Source: Escherichia phage vB-Eco-KMB36
Length of the DNA stretch: 44,710 bases
Strand: one strand, 5' to 3'
Sequence record: OR525703.1
Of the stretch, positions 10,804-18,012 are shown piece after piece. Every line of letters starts with the position of its first letter. The first letter of the stretch is position 1. A program made the position numbers and the translations under genes. The notes under the pieces were generated by a model. That model was not told where the DNA came from and did no database searches. It saw only the letters and a list, made by a program, of their open reading frames with translations.

Positions 10804-11216
10804 TGGGCTACTTTGAGGACTTAACAAAAGCGTTCGACGTGCCGCTGGTAGCCTTCGGAACCGCCAACGGCATCAAGGTTGCGCTTGAAAACATCGACGC
10901 GCCGACGTCAACCGATACGCCGTATCTGGCAAGTTACATGTTACTTGCGGATACAGAACAGGCGGATTTGTTCTTCACAGAACAACGCTCAGGTGTTTAT
11001 CAGGTCGACATTAACTACGCATCGGTGAAAGGTAGCGCGCCAATCAATAAAATGGCAGACTTACTTAACACGGCGTTTAAAGCAGGTAAGTCATTTTCGC
11101 GTAACGACATCTGCGCCGAGGTTCAATCGGTTAGCCTGGGGCCGCTGATTGTAGAAAACGGATGGGCCAAACGACCATTGTCAATTAACTTTATTGCATT
11201 CACCAAGAGGCTGTGA
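10800..11216 (+). CDS. tail terminator-like protein
   Basis: Position immediately upstream of major tail gene. Confidence 0.4.
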   Translation: MMGYFEDLTKAFDVPLVAFGTANGIKVALENIDAPTSTDTPYLASYMLLADTEQADLFFTEQRSGVYQVDINYASVKGSAPINKMADLLNTAFKAGKSFSRNDICAEVQSVSLGPLIVENGWAKRPLSINFIAFTKRL

Positions 11217-11218
11217 AT

Positions 11219-12385
11219 ATGGCTACAACTCCTTTTAAGGGCGCGAATACCGCGCAATTCTATGTGGCGGAAGTGACCCCTGGCGTAACACCGACTAACC
11301 CGGTCTGGTCGCCGTTGCGTAACACTGGCGGTGTTCCTGCGGTAACCCGCGATGCGCTGACTTCCAACGAACTCGACGGCAGCAGAGAAACCACATCCAT
11401 CCGCACCGGTAACAAACAGGTTAGCGGGGAGTACGCCATCGAACTTAGCTCACGTAGCCAGGATGATTTCCTTGCGGGTGCTATGACTTCTACGTGGCAG
11501 GACGGGGTAGAGATTACGGGTGCTGAAATTACGGTCGCTCCAGCGGGTAAAACATTCACCCGCGCTGCCGGTAGCTTCATTACTGACGGTGTAGAGGTTG
11601 GCGACCTGATTGCATTCACCGACTTAACCGGCGACAACGCAAAACCGTTTATCGTGACCGCGGTTTCTGCTCTTGTAGTTACGGGTGCGGGTATCCAGCA
11701 CACGCTGACAGCAGAGACTGTAACCACCGACGCTAAAACAGGCGATAAATTGGAAACCGGTAACGCATGTAAGACGTTCTCCATCCTGACATGGTTCAAA
11801 GGACAGTGCGGGAACCCTGACGCGTACATGCTGACCAAAGGCGTGGAAATCTCCGGTTTCACCATTGAACAGGCCGTAAACGCGATGGTGACAGGCAGCT
11901 TCCCGTTCATCGGCCTGAGCCAGGAGATTCTTTCCGGGCCGCCGGAAGGTTCCGACTTCTCTCAGGTCACATTCACTGACGAGCCGTTCTCTTCTGTAGA
12001 TGTGTCTGTGTTCGACGGTTCTACGCCGTTGCGTTGCGATACTCTTACCATAACCAACGACAACGGTGCGTCCGCACAGTTCGAACTAGGAAACAGTAGC
12101 GTTGCGTTCGTAGAACGTGGCCGCGCGGCTAACACATTCTCCATCTCCGGCAAGCTGTACGACATGGCGATGATTCAGAAGTTTATCAACGAGCAGCAGG
12201 TAGAGATTAACTCTATTCTGGCGGGGGTAAACGGGGCTATGTCTTTCAGTTTGAAACGTGCAGAGCTTACGGCGGTTACACCAGAAATATCAGGCCCAGA
12301 GTCAATCACTCAGAGCATAGAAGGACAGTCCACAGGCAATCAATATCAATCTTCTATTGTAATACAGCGTATTAGCTACGCGTAA
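11219..12385 (+). CDS. major tail (tube) protein
   Basis: About 390-aa ORF with AAGAGG RBS, followed by strong terminator; position upstream of chaperone and tape measure. Confidence 0.6.
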   Translation: MATTPFKGANTAQFYVAEVTPGVTPTNPVWSPLRNTGGVPAVTRDALTSNELDGSRETTSIRTGNKQVSGEYAIELSSRSQDDFLAGAMTSTWQDGVEITGAEITVAPAGKTFTRAAGSFITDGVEVGDLIAFTDLTGDNAKPFIVTAVSALVVTGAGIQHTLTAETVTTDAKTGDKLETGNACKTFSILTWFKGQCGNPDAYMLTKGVEISGFTIEQAVNAMVTGSFPFIGLSQEILSGPPEGSDFSQVTFTDEPFSSVDVSVFDGSTPLRCDTLTITNDNGASAQFELGNSSVAFVERGRAANTFSISGKLYDMAMIQKFINEQQVEINSILAGVNGAMSFSLKRAELTAVTPEISGPESITQSIEGQSTGNQYQSSIVIQRISYA

Positions 12386-12390
12386 GGAAA

Positions 12391-12416
12391 AGGCCCCGAA
12401 AGGGGCCTTACTATTT
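12391..12416. terminator. terminator hairpin shared by convergent genes
   Basis: AGGCCCCGAAAGGGGCCT hairpin between the major tail gene end and the minus-strand HNH gene end. Confidence 0.6.
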
Positions 12417-12899
12417 ACCGTGGTTCTCGTGGAACCCTAAATCTCTTTCAGCAACTCTCCTCGCGGCAACTGCATCTAGTAGCGTTTTAAAGCATCCGAT
12501 GTGTGTTTTTACGTTATTGTTGAATATCTGTGCGTACCACAACCTTTCTTTCGCGTTCCAGTAAACCCCGGTTACTCCTGATTTATTATTACGCTGTTTT
12601 GACATATTTTTATGGTTTTCCGCATTGGACTTTTTAGCTAAGTTAAGCGGTCTATTGTTTATTCGGTTATGGTCTAGATGGTCTATTTGATCTGACGAGG
12701 TTAGCTTATCGTTAGGATTGTTTAAGTCCCAAGCTATACGGTGCGCCGCGTGCCATTTACCTCTGAAAAATATCCTTCTATATCCGTCTCGCTGTACAGT
12801 ACCTGCCTCCTCTCCAGCCTTAGCCCTCCCGGAACGTGTTACTCTGTTAAATATCCTTCCTGAAATTAAGTCGTATATGAAAAATTCATTCCAGTCCAT
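12411..12899 (-). CDS. HNH homing endonuclease with AP2 DNA-binding domain
   Basis: IDHLDHNRINNRPLNL HNH core and AP2-like SGVTGVYWNAKERLWYAQI; start taken at the ATG 6 nt after AGGAG. Confidence 0.75.
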   Translation of the reverse strand: MDWNEFFIYDLISGRIFNRVTRSGRAKAGEEAGTVQRDGYRRIFFRGKWHAAHRIAWDLNNPNDKLTSSDQIDHLDHNRINNRPLNLAKKSNAENHKNMSKQRNNKSGVTGVYWNAKERLWYAQIFNNNVKTHIGCFKTLLDAVAARRVAERDLGFHENHGK

Positions 12900-12918
12900 A
12901 ATCATCTCCTGTTGCGAT

Positions 12919-12943
12919 AAGGCCCCGAAAGGGGCCTTTTTCT
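12919..12943 (+). terminator. terminator-like hairpin
   Basis: AAGGCCCCGAAAGGGGCC followed by TTTTTCT on the plus strand. Confidence 0.5.
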
Positions 12944-13173
12944 CACTCATCAATATTACTCCTGTACTCCCGTAACTTCTCCAGACTTTCAATTGCTTCA
13001 GCTAAGTCTGTTCCGGTGTCCTTGTGGCCACGCAAGCCCATACACAACAGCTTCTTCAATGCGTGTTGCAACGCCGGGTCGCGGATGTCGAAGGCACGCA
13101 GCACATCGTAAACGTCTACCGTCATAGTGCTGCCGTGGGTATTTGTCATTGTGCGGTTGTATTTATTTGTCAC
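12943..13173 (-). CDS. hypothetical protein
   Basis: 76-aa ORF, coupled to neighbours. Confidence 0.4.
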   Translation of the reverse strand: MTNKYNRTMTNTHGSTMTVDVYDVLRAFDIRDPALQHALKKLLCMGLRGHKDTGTDLAEAIESLEKLREYRSNIDE

Positions 13174-13363
13174 TGTTAACTCTCTTAAATCGGGCTATGC
13201 CTGACTCGTTAATGTTGCCTATTTCAAAGAAGCTGCGATATTTAGGCGAATACATTCTTACGTCGCCATTCTCTAGGGTGACCCCTTCATATACAGCGCC
13301 TACTTCGAATCCATTTTTCTCCGCGTACGGACTCACATCGGTGCATTCATACATATCTTTCAT
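13163..13363 (-). CDS. hypothetical protein
   Basis: 66-aa ORF. Confidence 0.4.
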   Translation of the reverse strand: MKDMYECTDVSPYAEKNGFEVGAVYEGVTLENGDVRMYSPKYRSFFEIGNINESGIARFKRVNSDK

Positions 13364-14490
13364 CCCAGCATCTCCGGTGAAATAGTTAAACGTGCGACCT
13401 CGCCATATTCGGCACTATAGGTAATTACATTTGCACTACGACCTGACATCCACCCGCCGCGGGAGGCGTAGGCGTCTTTAGCTGCTAAGGTGCGGTGTTG
13501 CTCAACAATCATGTTACGGCTTTCTACAATCTTCTGGTGGTGTAGGTGGCCTACGTGGGCGTAGCTGTAAACGCTCTCTCCGAACGCTTTGCGGAACTTG
13601 GCAATCATAACTGGCTCGATAGCGTCGAATCGTGCTTTATGCCCGTGGTGGAAGAACAGCGTCGTTTTGCCGTGTTGAACCATCTTGTAAACATCCGGCG
13701 ACGTATCGACGAACACACGCGGCTCATTGTCGTACAGCGTACTGAACATCTCAGCCAGCCAAATCATCCCGCTTTCGTCGTGGTTCCCTTGCACGATAAG
13801 CAAGCGAACAGTTTTATGCTTAACCAGTGCCATATCGACAACACGGCGTACCATACGAATCATGTAGCGGACCAGTTTCTGATAACGAGTGTCCGCATCA
13901 AGAACATGACCACTCGCTGGCGTAACCGCATCCAGACTATCGAAGTGCGCGAAGTCACCCAGCAGGTTAATAACCCCAGTTCCTGCATCTGGTGCTTTTT
14001 GAAATGCAGCATCAAACCAGCGGGAGAACAGGTCTTCCGCAATCTTCATGTCCCAGTCGTCGCCGCTCTCGTCGGCCCAGGCCAGCATACCGAGATGGAA
14101 ATCAGACACGGTGTAAAGATTGAGCAGCTTGTCGTCGCGTTTGGCACGGGCCGCTTTAACCGGTGCAACGGGAGTAATCTCTGACTTCATGCCTTCGATT
14201 ATGGCTTTCATCAATTCAACCTGACGTTCGGCGTCAGTATCTGTCTTAACCCATTGCAGTTTAGTGTTGCCGAACTCGTCCACAAGCGACGACGTTCCTT
14301 TAATCTTGTAGCCGTCCGGGACAAGATGGCTAACGTCACGACCGTGACCTACGCCTTTCTTCGCCAGCTTCGCTTTACGGATACGAATAACTCGGTCTGA
14401 GATGCCGTATTTACGGGATATGTCGATAATCTTTGTTCCGGCGTTCAATTCTTCCTGTAACTGTTCGTCGGTTATTTTAATCTGGGCCAT
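13360..14490 (-). CDS. calcineurin-like metallophosphoesterase with N-terminal HTH
   Basis: Motifs VSDFHLG, GDFAHFD, GNHDE, HHGH, GHLHH; N-terminal IDISRKYGISDRVIRIRK HTH-like segment. Confidence 0.7.
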   Translation of the reverse strand: MAQIKITDEQLQEELNAGTKIIDISRKYGISDRVIRIRKAKLAKKGVGHGRDVSHLVPDGYKIKGTSSLVDEFGNTKLQWVKTDTDAERQVELMKAIIEGMKSEITPVAPVKAARAKRDDKLLNLYTVSDFHLGMLAWADESGDDWDMKIAEDLFSRWFDAAFQKAPDAGTGVINLLGDFAHFDSLDAVTPASGHVLDADTRYQKLVRYMIRMVRRVVDMALVKHKTVRLLIVQGNHDESGMIWLAEMFSTLYDNEPRVFVDTSPDVYKMVQHGKTTLFFHHGHKARFDAIEPVMIAKFRKAFGESVYSYAHVGHLHHQKIVESRNMIVEQHRTLAAKDAYASRGGWMSGRSANVITYSAEYGEVARLTISPEMLG

Positions 14491-14529
14491 GCTTTACTTC
14501 CTCGTGTTTAGGATTTGTCCTATACTAGC

Positions 14530-14721
14530 TCACTTCTCTTTGACATTCGAGTTGCAAGCCCAGATTAAAATAAATACCCACGGCAGCAGAACCCAGCCAA
14601 GAAACAGATTGGCCATGAATATCGCTAATTTCGCTTTATGACCCCGCATATGGGCCACTAAAAACGGGATAAAATAAACTAAAACGATAATGATTAAGAA
14701 GAACATAGTAATACCTGTCAT
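14530..14721 (-). CDS. small membrane protein
   Basis: 63 aa with two hydrophobic helices. Confidence 0.45.
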   Translation of the reverse strand: MTGITMFFLIIIVLVYFIPFLVAHMRGHKAKLAIFMANLFLGWVLLPWVFILIWACNSNVKEK

Positions 14722-14762
14722 GGTGTAGCTCCTGTTTGAGTTAACATTGTTGGTGTAAGTGA

Positions 14763-14791
14763 ATAGTATCCTATTATGTTGGGGTGTGCAA
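14763..14791 (-). promoter_or_regulatory. sigma70-like promoter with AATAG-N4-CTATT palindrome
   Basis: Minus strand reads TTGCAC, 17 nt, TACTAT; near-identical to the plus-strand promoter at 37252..37280. Confidence 0.5.
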
Positions 14792-14898: not shown

Positions 14899-15315
14899 AT
14901 GAAACTTTCTGATTTTTATTACGAAGCTGAGGCAGAAAAAGGCGCCCGTATGCCAATACCACTGAAAGACGGCACCGATTCAGGGGAGTGGCTGAACGTT
15001 GTTTCACCGGAGGCAGACGTTGCCGTTAAAGCTATGAGGGCGTTTACACTTGCGTACCGCGCGGCATTAGGTAAATTGAAACCGCTTCGTGATAAATGTG
15101 AGGAACTGAAAGATTTCTCGGAATACAATATTAAGATGGAAGACGCCGCGACGGACCTTAACCGCCAGTTAGCACTTGAACTGGTTAACGGTTGGAGTCT
15201 CGACGATGAATTTAATAAAGAGAACCTGAACACTCTTTTCTCACAATATAAACGCCTCGCTGAACACGTTGTTGTTTTCCACAACGAACAGCTTCACCAA
15301 TTGCAGGAAAAGTAG
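14899..15315 (+). CDS. tail assembly chaperone (G-like)
   Basis: 138-aa ORF immediately upstream of tape measure; ends GAA AAG TAG. Confidence 0.6.
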   Translation: MKLSDFYYEAEAEKGARMPIPLKDGTDSGEWLNVVSPEADVAVKAMRAFTLAYRAALGKLKPLRDKCEELKDFSEYNIKMEDAATDLNRQLALELVNGWSLDDEFNKENLNTLFSQYKRLAEHVVVFHNEQLHQLQEK

Positions 15316-15320
15316 ACGCG

Positions 15321-15680
15321 TTGCTCCAGTTTGCCCGTTGGAACTTCATAACCCGCCACAAACGGCGGGAGTTTGACAGTATTGCCGACGGGCATAAAGC
15401 TGCGCTAATTGCTATGGGGGTTATGCAAGATGCGCCGGAAGCAACGCAGGATACCGGGCCAGAATGCCCCCCTGAACTACTAACCACCTTCGAGAAGTAC
15501 AGGGAAATCAAATTCACACGCCGAGTGGATGACGACGGCATCAAGATGTACCCGCGCGAACAGTTACGATGGTCGGATTTAGTGGCGTACAGCACCGTTT
15601 CAGGCCAGAATATAGGCATGTTTGAATCCGACATCATCATGAGCTTAGACGCTATTTTCGAGGGTAGAAACGATGGCTGA
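15321..15680 (+). CDS. tail assembly chaperone GT extension (likely -1 frameshift product)
   Basis: -1 frame is open from 15264 to 15680 and overlaps tape measure start; putative slip site at GGAAAAG 15306..15312. Confidence 0.5.
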   Translation: MLQFARWNFITRHKRREFDSIADGHKAALIAMGVMQDAPEATQDTGPECPPELLTTFEKYREIKFTRRVDDDGIKMYPREQLRWSDLVAYSTVSGQNIGMFESDIIMSLDAIFEGRNDG

Positions 15681-18012
15681 TGTAGCTAGTTTGGTTGTAA
15701 AAGTATCAGAGCAAGGCGCGAAAGCTACATCAGACCGTCTTGACAACCTTTCCAAATCCGCAAAAGTGGCAGGGGCTGCCGTAGCGGGCCTCGCTTCCAT
15801 CGTCGCCGCTACCGCGTACAAGGCCGCGCAGGAACTGGTAGACTCCCAACGGCAACTGGACAAGATGTCCGCCAGCCTGAAAACATTAACCGGTAGCACG
15901 CAGGGCGCGAGACAAGCACTAAGCATACTGCAAGACTTCGCGCGCGACACTCCGTATGGTCTTGAACAGGCGGTAGAGGGATTCCGTAAACTGGTGGCAC
16001 TCGGCCTTACCCCCTCAGAAGAAGCGTTGCGCTCCTACGGAAACACCGCTGCGGCTATGGGTAAAGACCTTAATCAGATGATTGAGGCCGTTGCGGACGC
16101 CAGTACATTTGAATTTGAGCGCCTTAAAGAATTCGGCATCAAGGCCAAGCAGAACAAAGACGATGTTGAATTTACATTCCAGGGCACTACTACGGTGGTT
16201 AAGAAGAGCGCTGCCGATATCGAGCAATACCTGCTCAACATTGGTAACGTAAACTTTGCGGGGGCTATGGCGGACCAGGCTAACACGCTTAATGGGGCTA
16301 TCGCCAGTGCCAGCGATTCCTGGTCGCAGTTAAAAATGACACTGGCTACCAGCCTTGATGTTGGTGCTCTTGCGGAACCTATCCGGTACATCGATGATTT
16401 AATCCAGGAACTTAACGCACAGGTAGCATCCGGCGAACTCGCCGCTGAGATGCGTATGTGGGGTGACATCGCGTCAGAAGTGGGCCGCGCGATAGAGATG
16501 TCCTTCGACGCGGCATTTGGTTTCGTAGGCGACGCGATAAACGGGCTGAATGAACTCTGGGATTTTAGCAGTAAAAGTATCACCGATAGCGGTGAACAAA
16601 CGGCGACAACCATCGCAGAATCAGCCGCCGATGCGCTAGATTTCATCGCGGAAGAATTTACCGCGATGGAGCGTTTCTTTGAAGATATGGTTAAAGGGGC
16701 GCAGGATGCTGGCCGGTTGGTGAAAGCAGCCTTCACACCAGGTGAATCGGTAGACGTAGCAAAAAACATTAACTTCCAGCTGGGTATGGCACTGGATACT
16801 CAGCGTGATGTTGCGGACCTGACCCGTAAAAGTTTCCGCGAACAGGTGGAGGCTCAGCAAAATATCGTCGCGCTTAAACGCGCGGCATATGACATCGACA
16901 AAGAAGCCGCTAAGGCAGAAGGGCTTAGTAAATTTAAGGTAACCGGTACTGGTGGCGGGTCCGAGGATGATAGCGCGGGGGCAAAAGCCGCTAAGAAAGC
17001 CGCAGATGCGTTCGAGCGCCAGAAGAAAGCCGCTGAGGATTTCTACTACCAGTCTATTCATCTCAATGATGATGTATTCCAGAAAATAGAAGCTAATCAG
17101 GAGCAACAGTTAACCAAGCTACAAGAGTTTTACGGCAACCAGCTTCTTAGCGACCAGCAATACGAGAACGCCAAAACTCAAATTATGCTGGAAGCTGACA
17201 CCGCACGACAGGAAGAACTCGCCAAGCGAGAGAAAGAACGGCAGGAAAAGAACCAGAAAGGTGAAGACTTCATGGCCCAGATTATGGGTCAGAATGCCAC
17301 CGAGCTTGAGCTTCTCGACATCCAGGAACAGCAGAAACTGGCGGTAGCGGATAAGTACCGCGAGCAGGGTTTGATTAGCGAGAAGCAGTATCAGGCCGCG
17401 CTTAACGCCATCAACGAGCAATACGCCACCAAGCGTGCCGATGCGACGGCAACGGCCTTTGGTAACATGGCGTCAAACATCGGGTCTGCGTTGGGGGAGG
17501 CTTCCAGCGCGTACAAGGCATTCGCTATCGTACAGGCCACTATAGCCACGTACACCGCAGCTATTGAAGCGTACAAGTCAACGGCCGCTATCCCTGTTGT
17601 TGGCCCGTTCCTGGCCCCTGTAGCCGCTGCTGCTGCCGTTGGGGCGGGTATGGCGCAGGTTTCCGCTATCAGGTCCGCGCGCGAACAGGGTGGTCAGTTA
17701 TCCGCAGGGCAGGCTTCCACCATCGCTGAACGTGGTAAACCAGAAGTTATCATGCCCGCTGGCGCGTCACGTGTGCGCACAGCACAGCAAATGAAAGAAA
17801 TTATGGGGCAAAATGGGTCTTCTTCTGGCCCATCTAATGTTACCATTGTAAATAACACATCGAGTCAGATTGGCAACGTATCTACCGAGCAGGATGACGA
17901 AGGCCGTTTGCGCATCATCATAGAAGAGCAGGTGGCTGCCTCTTTGCAGAACAGCAACAGTAAGATTAGCAAGGCCCGCAAGGCCACAAGAAACGCGCCG
18001 GGGTTCAAGTAA
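15673..18012 (+). CDS. tail tape measure protein
   Basis: 779-aa Ala/Gln/Glu-rich helical protein after G/GT. Confidence 0.8.
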   Translation: MADVASLVVKVSEQGAKATSDRLDNLSKSAKVAGAAVAGLASIVAATAYKAAQELVDSQRQLDKMSASLKTLTGSTQGARQALSILQDFARDTPYGLEQAVEGFRKLVALGLTPSEEALRSYGNTAAAMGKDLNQMIEAVADASTFEFERLKEFGIKAKQNKDDVEFTFQGTTTVVKKSAADIEQYLLNIGNVNFAGAMADQANTLNGAIASASDSWSQLKMTLATSLDVGALAEPIRYIDDLIQELNAQVASGELAAEMRMWGDIASEVGRAIEMSFDAAFGFVGDAINGLNELWDFSSKSITDSGEQTATTIAESAADALDFIAEEFTAMERFFEDMVKGAQDAGRLVKAAFTPGESVDVAKNINFQLGMALDTQRDVADLTRKSFREQVEAQQNIVALKRAAYDIDKEAAKAEGLSKFKVTGTGGGSEDDSAGAKAAKKAADAFERQKKAAEDFYYQSIHLNDDVFQKIEANQEQQLTKLQEFYGNQLLSDQQYENAKTQIMLEADTARQEELAKREKERQEKNQKGEDFMAQIMGQNATELELLDIQEQQKLAVADKYREQGLISEKQYQAALNAINEQYATKRADATATAFGNMASNIGSALGEASSAYKAFAIVQATIATYTAAIEAYKSTAAIPVVGPFLAPVAAAAAVGAGMAQVSAIRSAREQGGQLSAGQASTIAERGKPEVIMPAGASRVRTAQQMKEIMGQNGSSSGPSNVTIVNNTSSQIGNVSTEQDDEGRLRIIIEEQVAASLQNSNSKISKARKATRNAPGFK

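Follow-up and report, generated by a model that had tools for sequence, protein, structure and literature searches.

Upstream of its tape measure gene, the DNA analysed here (the window, 44,710 nucleotides of Escherichia phage vB-Eco-KMB36, OR525703.1) carries two overlapping open reading frames, the second of which lies in the -1 frame relative to the first. This arrangement raises the question of whether the second frame is translated as a protein in its own right or as the C-terminal extension of the first and, if the latter, at which codon and by what signal ribosomes would change frame. A sequence-only reading of the window had proposed a programmed -1 frameshift that joins a tail assembly chaperone, G, to its T extension; we examine that proposal here by comparison of the locus with its relatives.

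Architecture of the G-T locus

The window derives from a Kagunavirus-like (Guernseyvirinae) E. coli siphophage and is 97% identical in the G-T region to vB_EcoS_XY1 and others. The genes and junction features discussed below lie on the plus strand, apart from a block of minus-strand ORFs mentioned as such. G spans 14899-15315 in the zero frame and encodes a protein of 138 aa (15.9 kDa), and both the sequence and the ORF list confirm that it ends, as had been read earlier, in CAG (15304) GAA (15307) AAG (15310) and the stop TAG (15313-15315). Translation likewise bears out the description of the -1 frame, in which a TGA at 15261-15263 is followed by an open frame from 15264 to the TGA at 15678-15680, running into the tape measure start and reading GGA AAA GTA GAC across the junction. 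Counted from the junction, the T extension (15312-15680) comprises 122 codons from GTA (15312) to GGC and the TGA stop at 15678-15680, and the predicted GT fusion (14899-15312 joined to 15312-15677) would be a protein of 260 aa and 29.9 kDa.

The identities proposed for the two frames, tail chaperone G and its T extension, are both borne out by profile matches: the G protein matches Pfam PF08748 (Phage_TAC_4, E 2.5e-8) and PHROG 15027/313 'tail assembly chaperone', and the -1 ORF matches Pfam PF23812 (Phage_TAC_18, E 1e-18). Furthermore, G aligns with positions 1-138 and the -1 ORF with positions 143-259 of phrog_15027, a profile that is colinear with the K138-V139 fusion, one half matching G and the other half T. 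The tail tube gene (11213-12385; Pfam PF18906 Phage_tube_2, E 2.6e-36) and the tape measure gene (15673-18012; phrog_1538, E 4e-207; Pfam TMP_3) complete the lambda-type order of tube, G, T and tape measure, with the tape-measure ATG (15673) and the T stop overlapping by 8 nt. Five minus-strand ORFs (12411-14721) separate the tube gene from G, so that G, T and the tape measure gene open a new rightward unit. This minus-strand block includes an HNH_3 endonuclease-like ORF (12411-12992), whose position is taken by other genes in relatives (a polynucleotide kinase in Golestan), a calcineurin-like phosphoesterase (13360-14490) and an Imm-type superinfection immunity protein (14530-14721), and one weak sigma-70-like site is found at 14741-14769, upstream of G.

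From base composition, an open frame of 139 codons would arise by chance with a probability of about 0.0014, and the 7-mer AAAGTAR occurs 11 times in the window against 11.8 expected, showing no enrichment. In the absence of such enrichment, the case for a functional junction rests on the Pfam and PHROG homology, on the position before the tape measure gene and, above all, on conservation.

Conservation of the junction and the predicted slip signal

Homologous loci collected from GenBank phages, IMG/VR and Logan assemblies yielded 71 distinct G-T pairs, corresponding to 67 distinct nucleotide junctions, from Guernseyvirinae-like phages of E. coli, Salmonella, Serratia and similar hosts, with T parts down to about 42% identity. 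Over this range the proteins diverge while the frame relation and the junction are kept: NNA AAG TAR is invariant in 67 of the 67 distinct junctions, and the same junction recurs in three more distant relatives (L101-L103) whose G proteins are 144-150 aa long. The length of the -1 overlap varies between 6 and 204 nt, with 21 nt in K1G and phiEap-2 and 6 nt in two relatives (L067 and L070), where it confines any shared shift site to the NNA_AAG hexamer; in the window this is GAA_AAG at 15307-15312, with the core tetranucleotide A_AAG at 15309-15312. The last sense codon of G is AAG in 27 of 27 lineages, compared with 41.5% of the Lys codons elsewhere in the G and T genes. At the penultimate codon (GAA, GCA, GTA, TCA or GGA) the amino acid changes among E, A, V, S and G while the third base is fixed as A: Glu is encoded by GAA in 17 of 17 cases against a background of 57%, and GCN, GTN and TCN codons end in A in 10 of 10 against 21-27%, the background share of third-base A in all the fourfold families involved being 11-27%. 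At the protein level, K138, V139, A141 and L142 are invariant across the junction.

Three other observations concern the sample itself. A scan of genome collections for prophage copies of the G-T pair returned none, its yield being one clear match and a weak, 46-residue match to G only. The clear match is a G-T pair 93% identical to the window's fusion on a 13-kb scaffold of a Bacteroidota genome (NZ_JACVEL010000023.1, Taishania pollutisoli assembly), most likely phage DNA that contaminates the assembly and not a prophage. For Salmonella phage SS3e (AY730274.2), the IMG/VR copy shows G broken after 37 codons, probably by a sequencing indel in an old record, and tblastn aligns the entire fusion.

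The earlier proposal had ribosomes slip at GGAAAAG (15306-15312). Its placement stands, with the correction that GGAAAAG is not a classical X_XXY_YYZ heptamer: the two G's are not conserved, relatives having CGCAAAG, GGTAAAG and GTCAAAG, and tandem slippage on G_GAA_AAG would require a G:U pair at the middle position. In relatives with C_GCA_AAG, G_GUA_AAG or G_UCA_AAG, re-pairing in the P site is not possible. L048 (IMGVR_UViG_2974654489_000001) is the sole relative with the canonical lambda heptamer G_GGA_AAG (CAG GGA AAG TAG), a penultimate E to G change there creating a full X_XXY_YYZ site. The conserved signal comprises just A_AAG, the adjacent stop and a downstream GCGYTG, which points to slippage of a single tRNA-Lys; on this comparison the predicted signal is a minimal tetra- or hexanucleotide, NNA_AAG, and not a tandem X_XXY_YYZ site. 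In E. coli, A_AAG far exceeds all other tetramers in its tendency to shift, yielding 5.6% frameshifting with a strong pseudoknot and near-background levels without one (PMC4066793), and a single tRNA-Lys (mnm5s2UUU) decodes both AAA and AAG (PMC5009743). IS1222 makes use of single-tRNA slippage on NNA_AAG, which is also found in B. subtilis cdd (PMC5009743).

Two further elements of the junction are conserved beyond what the proteins ask for. The zero-frame stop UAG (15313-15315) adjoins the slip codon on its 3' side, which makes it a candidate 'shifty stop' stimulator, and this position holds TAG or TAA in all 67 junctions as well as in L101-L103, with no instance of TGA or of a sense codon. 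Yet a TAG to TGG change would be synonymous in the T frame, and TGA would keep Val139 (as GTG). The second element is the invariant hexamer GCGYTG (GCGTTG in the window, 15318-15323), which lies 5 nt after AAG (+6 to +11), includes the TTG at 15321 and contains two synonymous positions. Zero third-base entropy is confined to four of the 39 conserved four- or sixfold-degenerate codons of G and T: T codons 1, 3 and 4, which come right behind the slip site, and the final codon of T, where it overlaps with the tape-measure ATG. The others range from 1.07 to 1.98 bits. No pairing partner for GCGYTG was found in a lineage-by-lineage search (mean z -0.24), and neither RNA pairing, nor a Shine-Dalgarno (SD) function, nor Rfam, whose frameshift elements have no match at the junction, explains its invariance.

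From these patterns we consider it very probable that GT is made by a -1 slip at the last codon of G, with peptidyl-tRNA-Lys in the P site, UAG in the A site and modulators on the 3' side. A small fraction of the ribosomes on G would shift at this last sense codon, where tRNA-Lys on AAG (15310-15312) would unpair and re-pair with AAA (15309-15311), mainly while it is held as peptidyl-tRNA in the P site and UAG stands undecoded in the A site, a 'shifty stop' configuration. The next codon would then be GUA (15312-15314), and reading of 122 codons, to 15677, would yield the 260-aa fusion (...LQEK-VDALLQFARW...) beside an abundant 138-aa G. We infer the making of the fusion, its ratio to G and the ribosomal site that slips from the sequence comparison, and, by analogy with lambda gpG/gpGT, GT would work alongside the tape measure protein as the second of two tail assembly chaperones. 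Slippage in the P site is favoured because the stop is invariantly adjacent to the slip codon. Stops that adjoin shift sites can indeed stimulate shifting (PMC5009743), and in PEMV the change of a nearby stop to a sense codon sharply lowers -1 shifting (cited in PMC5009743).

Since A_AAG is near background on its own (PMC4066793), a stimulator is expected, and the window offers a structural candidate in a three-tier stem-loop at 15318-15405 that begins 5 nt after AAG and encloses an inner hairpin, CCCGCC/GGCGGG, at 15352-15369 (minimum free energy -42.2 kcal/mol, z -5.08, 0 of 200 shuffles as stable). The stability and spacing of this element lend weight to a serious, if on balance rather unlikely, alternative in which GAA occupies the P site and AAG the A site when the shift occurs: tRNA-Lys would slip by -1 in the A site, perhaps together with tRNA-Glu through a G:U pair on GGA, under stimulation by 3' elements such as the stem-loop, the adjacent stop would be incidental, and the product would be the same. 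This alternative comes closest to the sequence-only reading, and it draws further on the 5-nt spacing shared with an IS3 pseudoknot construct, on the E. coli tetramer rules, which were established for A-site tRNA re-pairing (both PMC4066793), and on the fit of GGAAAA to the empirical 'twofour' XXYYYY motif of PRFect. Against it, its near-tandem form would fail in the C_GCA_AAG and G_UCA_AAG relatives, as noted above, and, if the stop were incidental, its constant adjacency and the lack of TGA or a sense codon in its place would go unexplained. Moreover, the stem-loop is not conserved: in the family, RNAalifold finds no consensus fold downstream of the junction (-0.09 kcal/mol), no covariation is seen in this region across the family, and an explicit long-range two-helix model built from single folds pairs 68.4% of cells compared with 67.5% in shuffles. 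Lineage by lineage, downstream stability averages z -0.97, against -0.50 and +0.32 in control windows, with many lineages near 0.

The stem-loop is thus best seen as a plausible clade-specific enhancer, and under P-site slippage GCGYUG, 5 nt downstream, and, in the window's clade, the stem-loop would act as additional 3' modulators. An upstream SD-like stimulator of the kind found in dnaX or cdd is not conserved among the relatives either; with neither a family-wide RNA structure nor an upstream SD, the efficiency of the shift would rest on the putative roles of the stop and GCGYUG. A bolder version of the proposal, which we advance tentatively and think unlikely to hold in full, treats the invariant 15-nt A_AAG_UAR_NNG_CGY_UG as a self-contained, structure-independent -1 frameshift cassette, in which the slip of tRNA-Lys would be driven by the RF1-read stop together with GCGYUG, a primary-sequence element whose effect would be exerted in the entry channel for mRNA or on how efficiently termination proceeds. 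If true, such a combination would be undescribed for tail chaperone genes and would be missed by the motif-based predictors in use.

Coding status and expression of the T extension

The codons of T that precede the internal ATG at 15414 carry a clear signature of translation. Over T codons 5-34 the synonymous fraction is 0.745 in the -1 frame as opposed to 0.168 and 0.094 in the other two, and third-position entropy is 1.44 bits compared with 0.68 and 0.61 bits at positions 1 and 2; all 34 codons upstream of this ATG are under strong purifying selection in the -1 frame only and free of stops there in every sequence. Start codons, by contrast with this coding signature, are scattered. The window's TTG (15321) is present in its own clade and in Jerseyvirus and is CTG at the homologous codon in most lineages, and the distance from the junction to the first ATG, GTG or TTG of the -1 frame ranges from +9 to +324 nt: +171 in STP-1, +324 of 363 in two lineages (L092 and L096) and +93 to +324 in many. 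No conserved SD precedes T across the relatives, where SD-like pairing is weak (0 to -5 kcal/mol) and is absent in GCAAAG lineages. Taken together, the -1-only coding signature and the missing starts indicate that ribosomes read this segment in the -1 frame and that, in many phages, they can reach it from G alone. Alignment of the relatives establishes the anatomy, the conservation and the coding status of the T extension, and the proposal that G continues into T by a -1 frameshift gains strong support from the invariant junction, the 6-nt overlap, the lack of a conserved start or SD, the -1-only coding signature and the joined CDS in the record of phage K1G.

These data bear directly on the possibility that T is a separate protein, started at TTG 15321 with AGGA (15305-15308) as its ribosome-binding site. 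Such a reading agrees with the two-CDS annotation in nearly all records examined and with the ribosome-binding site marked there by CPT annotators, and some independent initiation may occur in the window's own clade, where the TTG has an AGGA 12 nt upstream. We nevertheless regard it as very improbable, given the CTG at the homologous codon in most lineages, the distant first canonical starts and the weak, unconserved SD-like pairing; it would also leave the fixed third-base A and the AAG codon without a reason, and the three codons before TTG (V-D-A) are conserved as amino acids.

An equally slim chance attaches to termination-reinitiation, in which ribosomes would end G at UAG and restart 5 nt further on at YUG (UUG or CUG), so that small amounts of free T would be made. 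This would account for the invariant spacing between the stop and YTG and for the invariant TG of the YTG codon, and a low yield from CUG would suit a minor product. Against it, CUG is a very poor bacterial start. Reinitiation explains neither the invariant A_AAG and the third-base A maintained over five different penultimate codons nor the amino-acid conservation of V139 and A141, and by the lambda paradigm a free T would be devoid of the G domain that brings T to the tape-measure complex (PMC5009743).

A sensitive search with the T part against 1.84 billion representatives returned 30 clusters, all of 52-165 aa and with scattered N-termini, and no natural in-frame G-T fusion among them; the scatter is what gene callers are expected to output for a frameshifted extension that has no real start. 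A word-indexed protein search with the 260-aa fusion was uninformative, with just 5 matches, none fused. A 165-aa JGI protein combines the N-terminus of a phosphoesterase (homologous to 13360-14490), a T fragment and unrelated sequence, and is likely a chimera from a misassembled short metagenomic contig. Most database ORFs begin at the methionine of ATG 15414 (...IAMGV...), including those of L101 and L102 and 14 of the 30 cluster representatives, and the Pfam TAC_18 domain covers just this part, which would suit an 88-aa T protein, the prediction of many gene callers, started at this ATG downstream of a non-functional open frame. We judge this highly improbable, as the ATG is ATC or ATA in 7 of 27 lineages and the 34 upstream codons are constrained as described above. 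Finally, transcriptional slippage, in which RNA polymerase would drop one A from some transcripts, can be dismissed with near certainty, for although four A's stand in a row in the window (15308-15311), the stretch measures just 3-4 nt across the group (CGCAAAG in many relatives) and such slippage is known on far longer runs.

Annotation of the locus and relation to known frameshift systems

The proposed -1 frameshift at the last codon of G is at variance with how the locus is mostly recorded. RefSeq and GenBank relatives, close and distant, mostly carry two separate CDSs, the second of which starts at the TTG equivalent to 15321, at CTG or from an internal start codon, and in some records is missing altogether; records of the window's near relatives (97% nucleotide identity) show two independent CDSs or miss T. 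In Serratia phage Eta (NC_021563, checked on the sequence) annotation of the second chaperone CDS begins at a CTG, 5 nt beyond the stop of G, and in Bas76 (PQ850632) at the position equivalent to the Eta CTG, such non-standard 'starts' having been chosen because there is no real start codon there. Curators of close relatives noted 'no canonical slippery sequence' (PMC6776780). The frameshift as such is not new for the group, since K1G has a joined CDS and PHROG 15027 has fused members; what is new, within the reach of comparative sequence evidence, is the case for the predicted shift family-wide, together with the exact position of its site, the recognition that this site is non-canonical, and the invariant hexamer on its 3' side.

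Annotation of the locus is inconsistent over hundreds of genomes of Guernseyvirinae (Jerseyvirus, Kagunavirus and others), many of which come from phage-therapy and biocontrol work: it appears as two genes, with CTG 'starts', with T cut to the 88-aa ORF or with T missed. The comparative result provides a junction, K138-V139, for the whole group and an annotation rule, NNA_AAG_TAR. It also describes a natural and deeply conserved minimal A_AAG site on the last sense codon, with an invariant hexamer and without a conserved RNA structure, so that the locus could serve as a small model in which to ask how -1 shifting at low levels is stimulated in enterobacteria.

Among known systems, lambda gpG/gpGT, with its programmed -1 frameshift (Levin 1993; Xu 2004, 2013, 2014; summarised in PMC5009743), sets the paradigm. 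In both phages a pair of overlapping ORFs lies immediately before the tape-measure gene, and the second ORF, which has no start of its own, is in the -1 frame; an abundant short product is accompanied by a rare fusion, which in the window is predicted; and tRNA-Lys slips, or in the window would slip, on A_AAG, the exact lambda heptamer G_GGA_AAG being present in L048. The window differs in that the P-site half of the heptamer is missing, both there (G_GAA_AAG) and in its relatives (C_GCA_AAG, G_UCA_AAG), in that slippage would take place on the final sense codon of G, right next to the stop, and in its Pfam families (TAC_4/TAC_18).

ORF22A/ORF22B of the Kagunavirus K1G (NC_027993), a phage of a different species cluster, are homologous to the window's genes: the two fusions share 55% identity, the junction CAG GAA AAG TAG ACG CG is the same in both, and the K1G record holds a joined two-piece CDS in addition to a short CDS. 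With 'shifty stop' sites, a form of recoding reportedly described by Weiss et al. in 1987, the window has in common that a stop comes right behind the codon where the peptidyl-tRNA re-pairs or, in the window, would re-pair. The best-studied examples, prfB and antizyme, shift by +1, whereas the shift in the window would be -1, with the role of the stop deduced from conservation.

The slip signal itself resembles that of IS1222 (G_CGA_AAG) and B. subtilis cdd (A_CGA_AAG) (Sharma et al. 2014), where likewise the A-AAG re-pairing alone is conserved, the 5' codon ends in A and low-level shifting is expected; the window's family departs from this type in its 5' codons (GAA, GCA, GUA, UCA or GGA instead of CGA), in the stop that follows directly and in that no conserved pseudoknot or SD was found. 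The distantly related Burkholderia phage KL1 has tail proteins related to those of K1G and K1H, predicted G/GT products of 142 and 264 aa (gp18/gp19) and a slip site predicted immediately before the G stop, and differs from the window in the canonical heptamer G_GGA_AAC of that predicted site, in a TGA stop and in an extra gene before the tape measure gene (PMC3483164). Set against these systems, the locus is in all likelihood an ordinary phage G/GT frameshift with a minimal, stop-adjacent signal, a modest mechanistic twist on the lambda theme as judged from its conservation.
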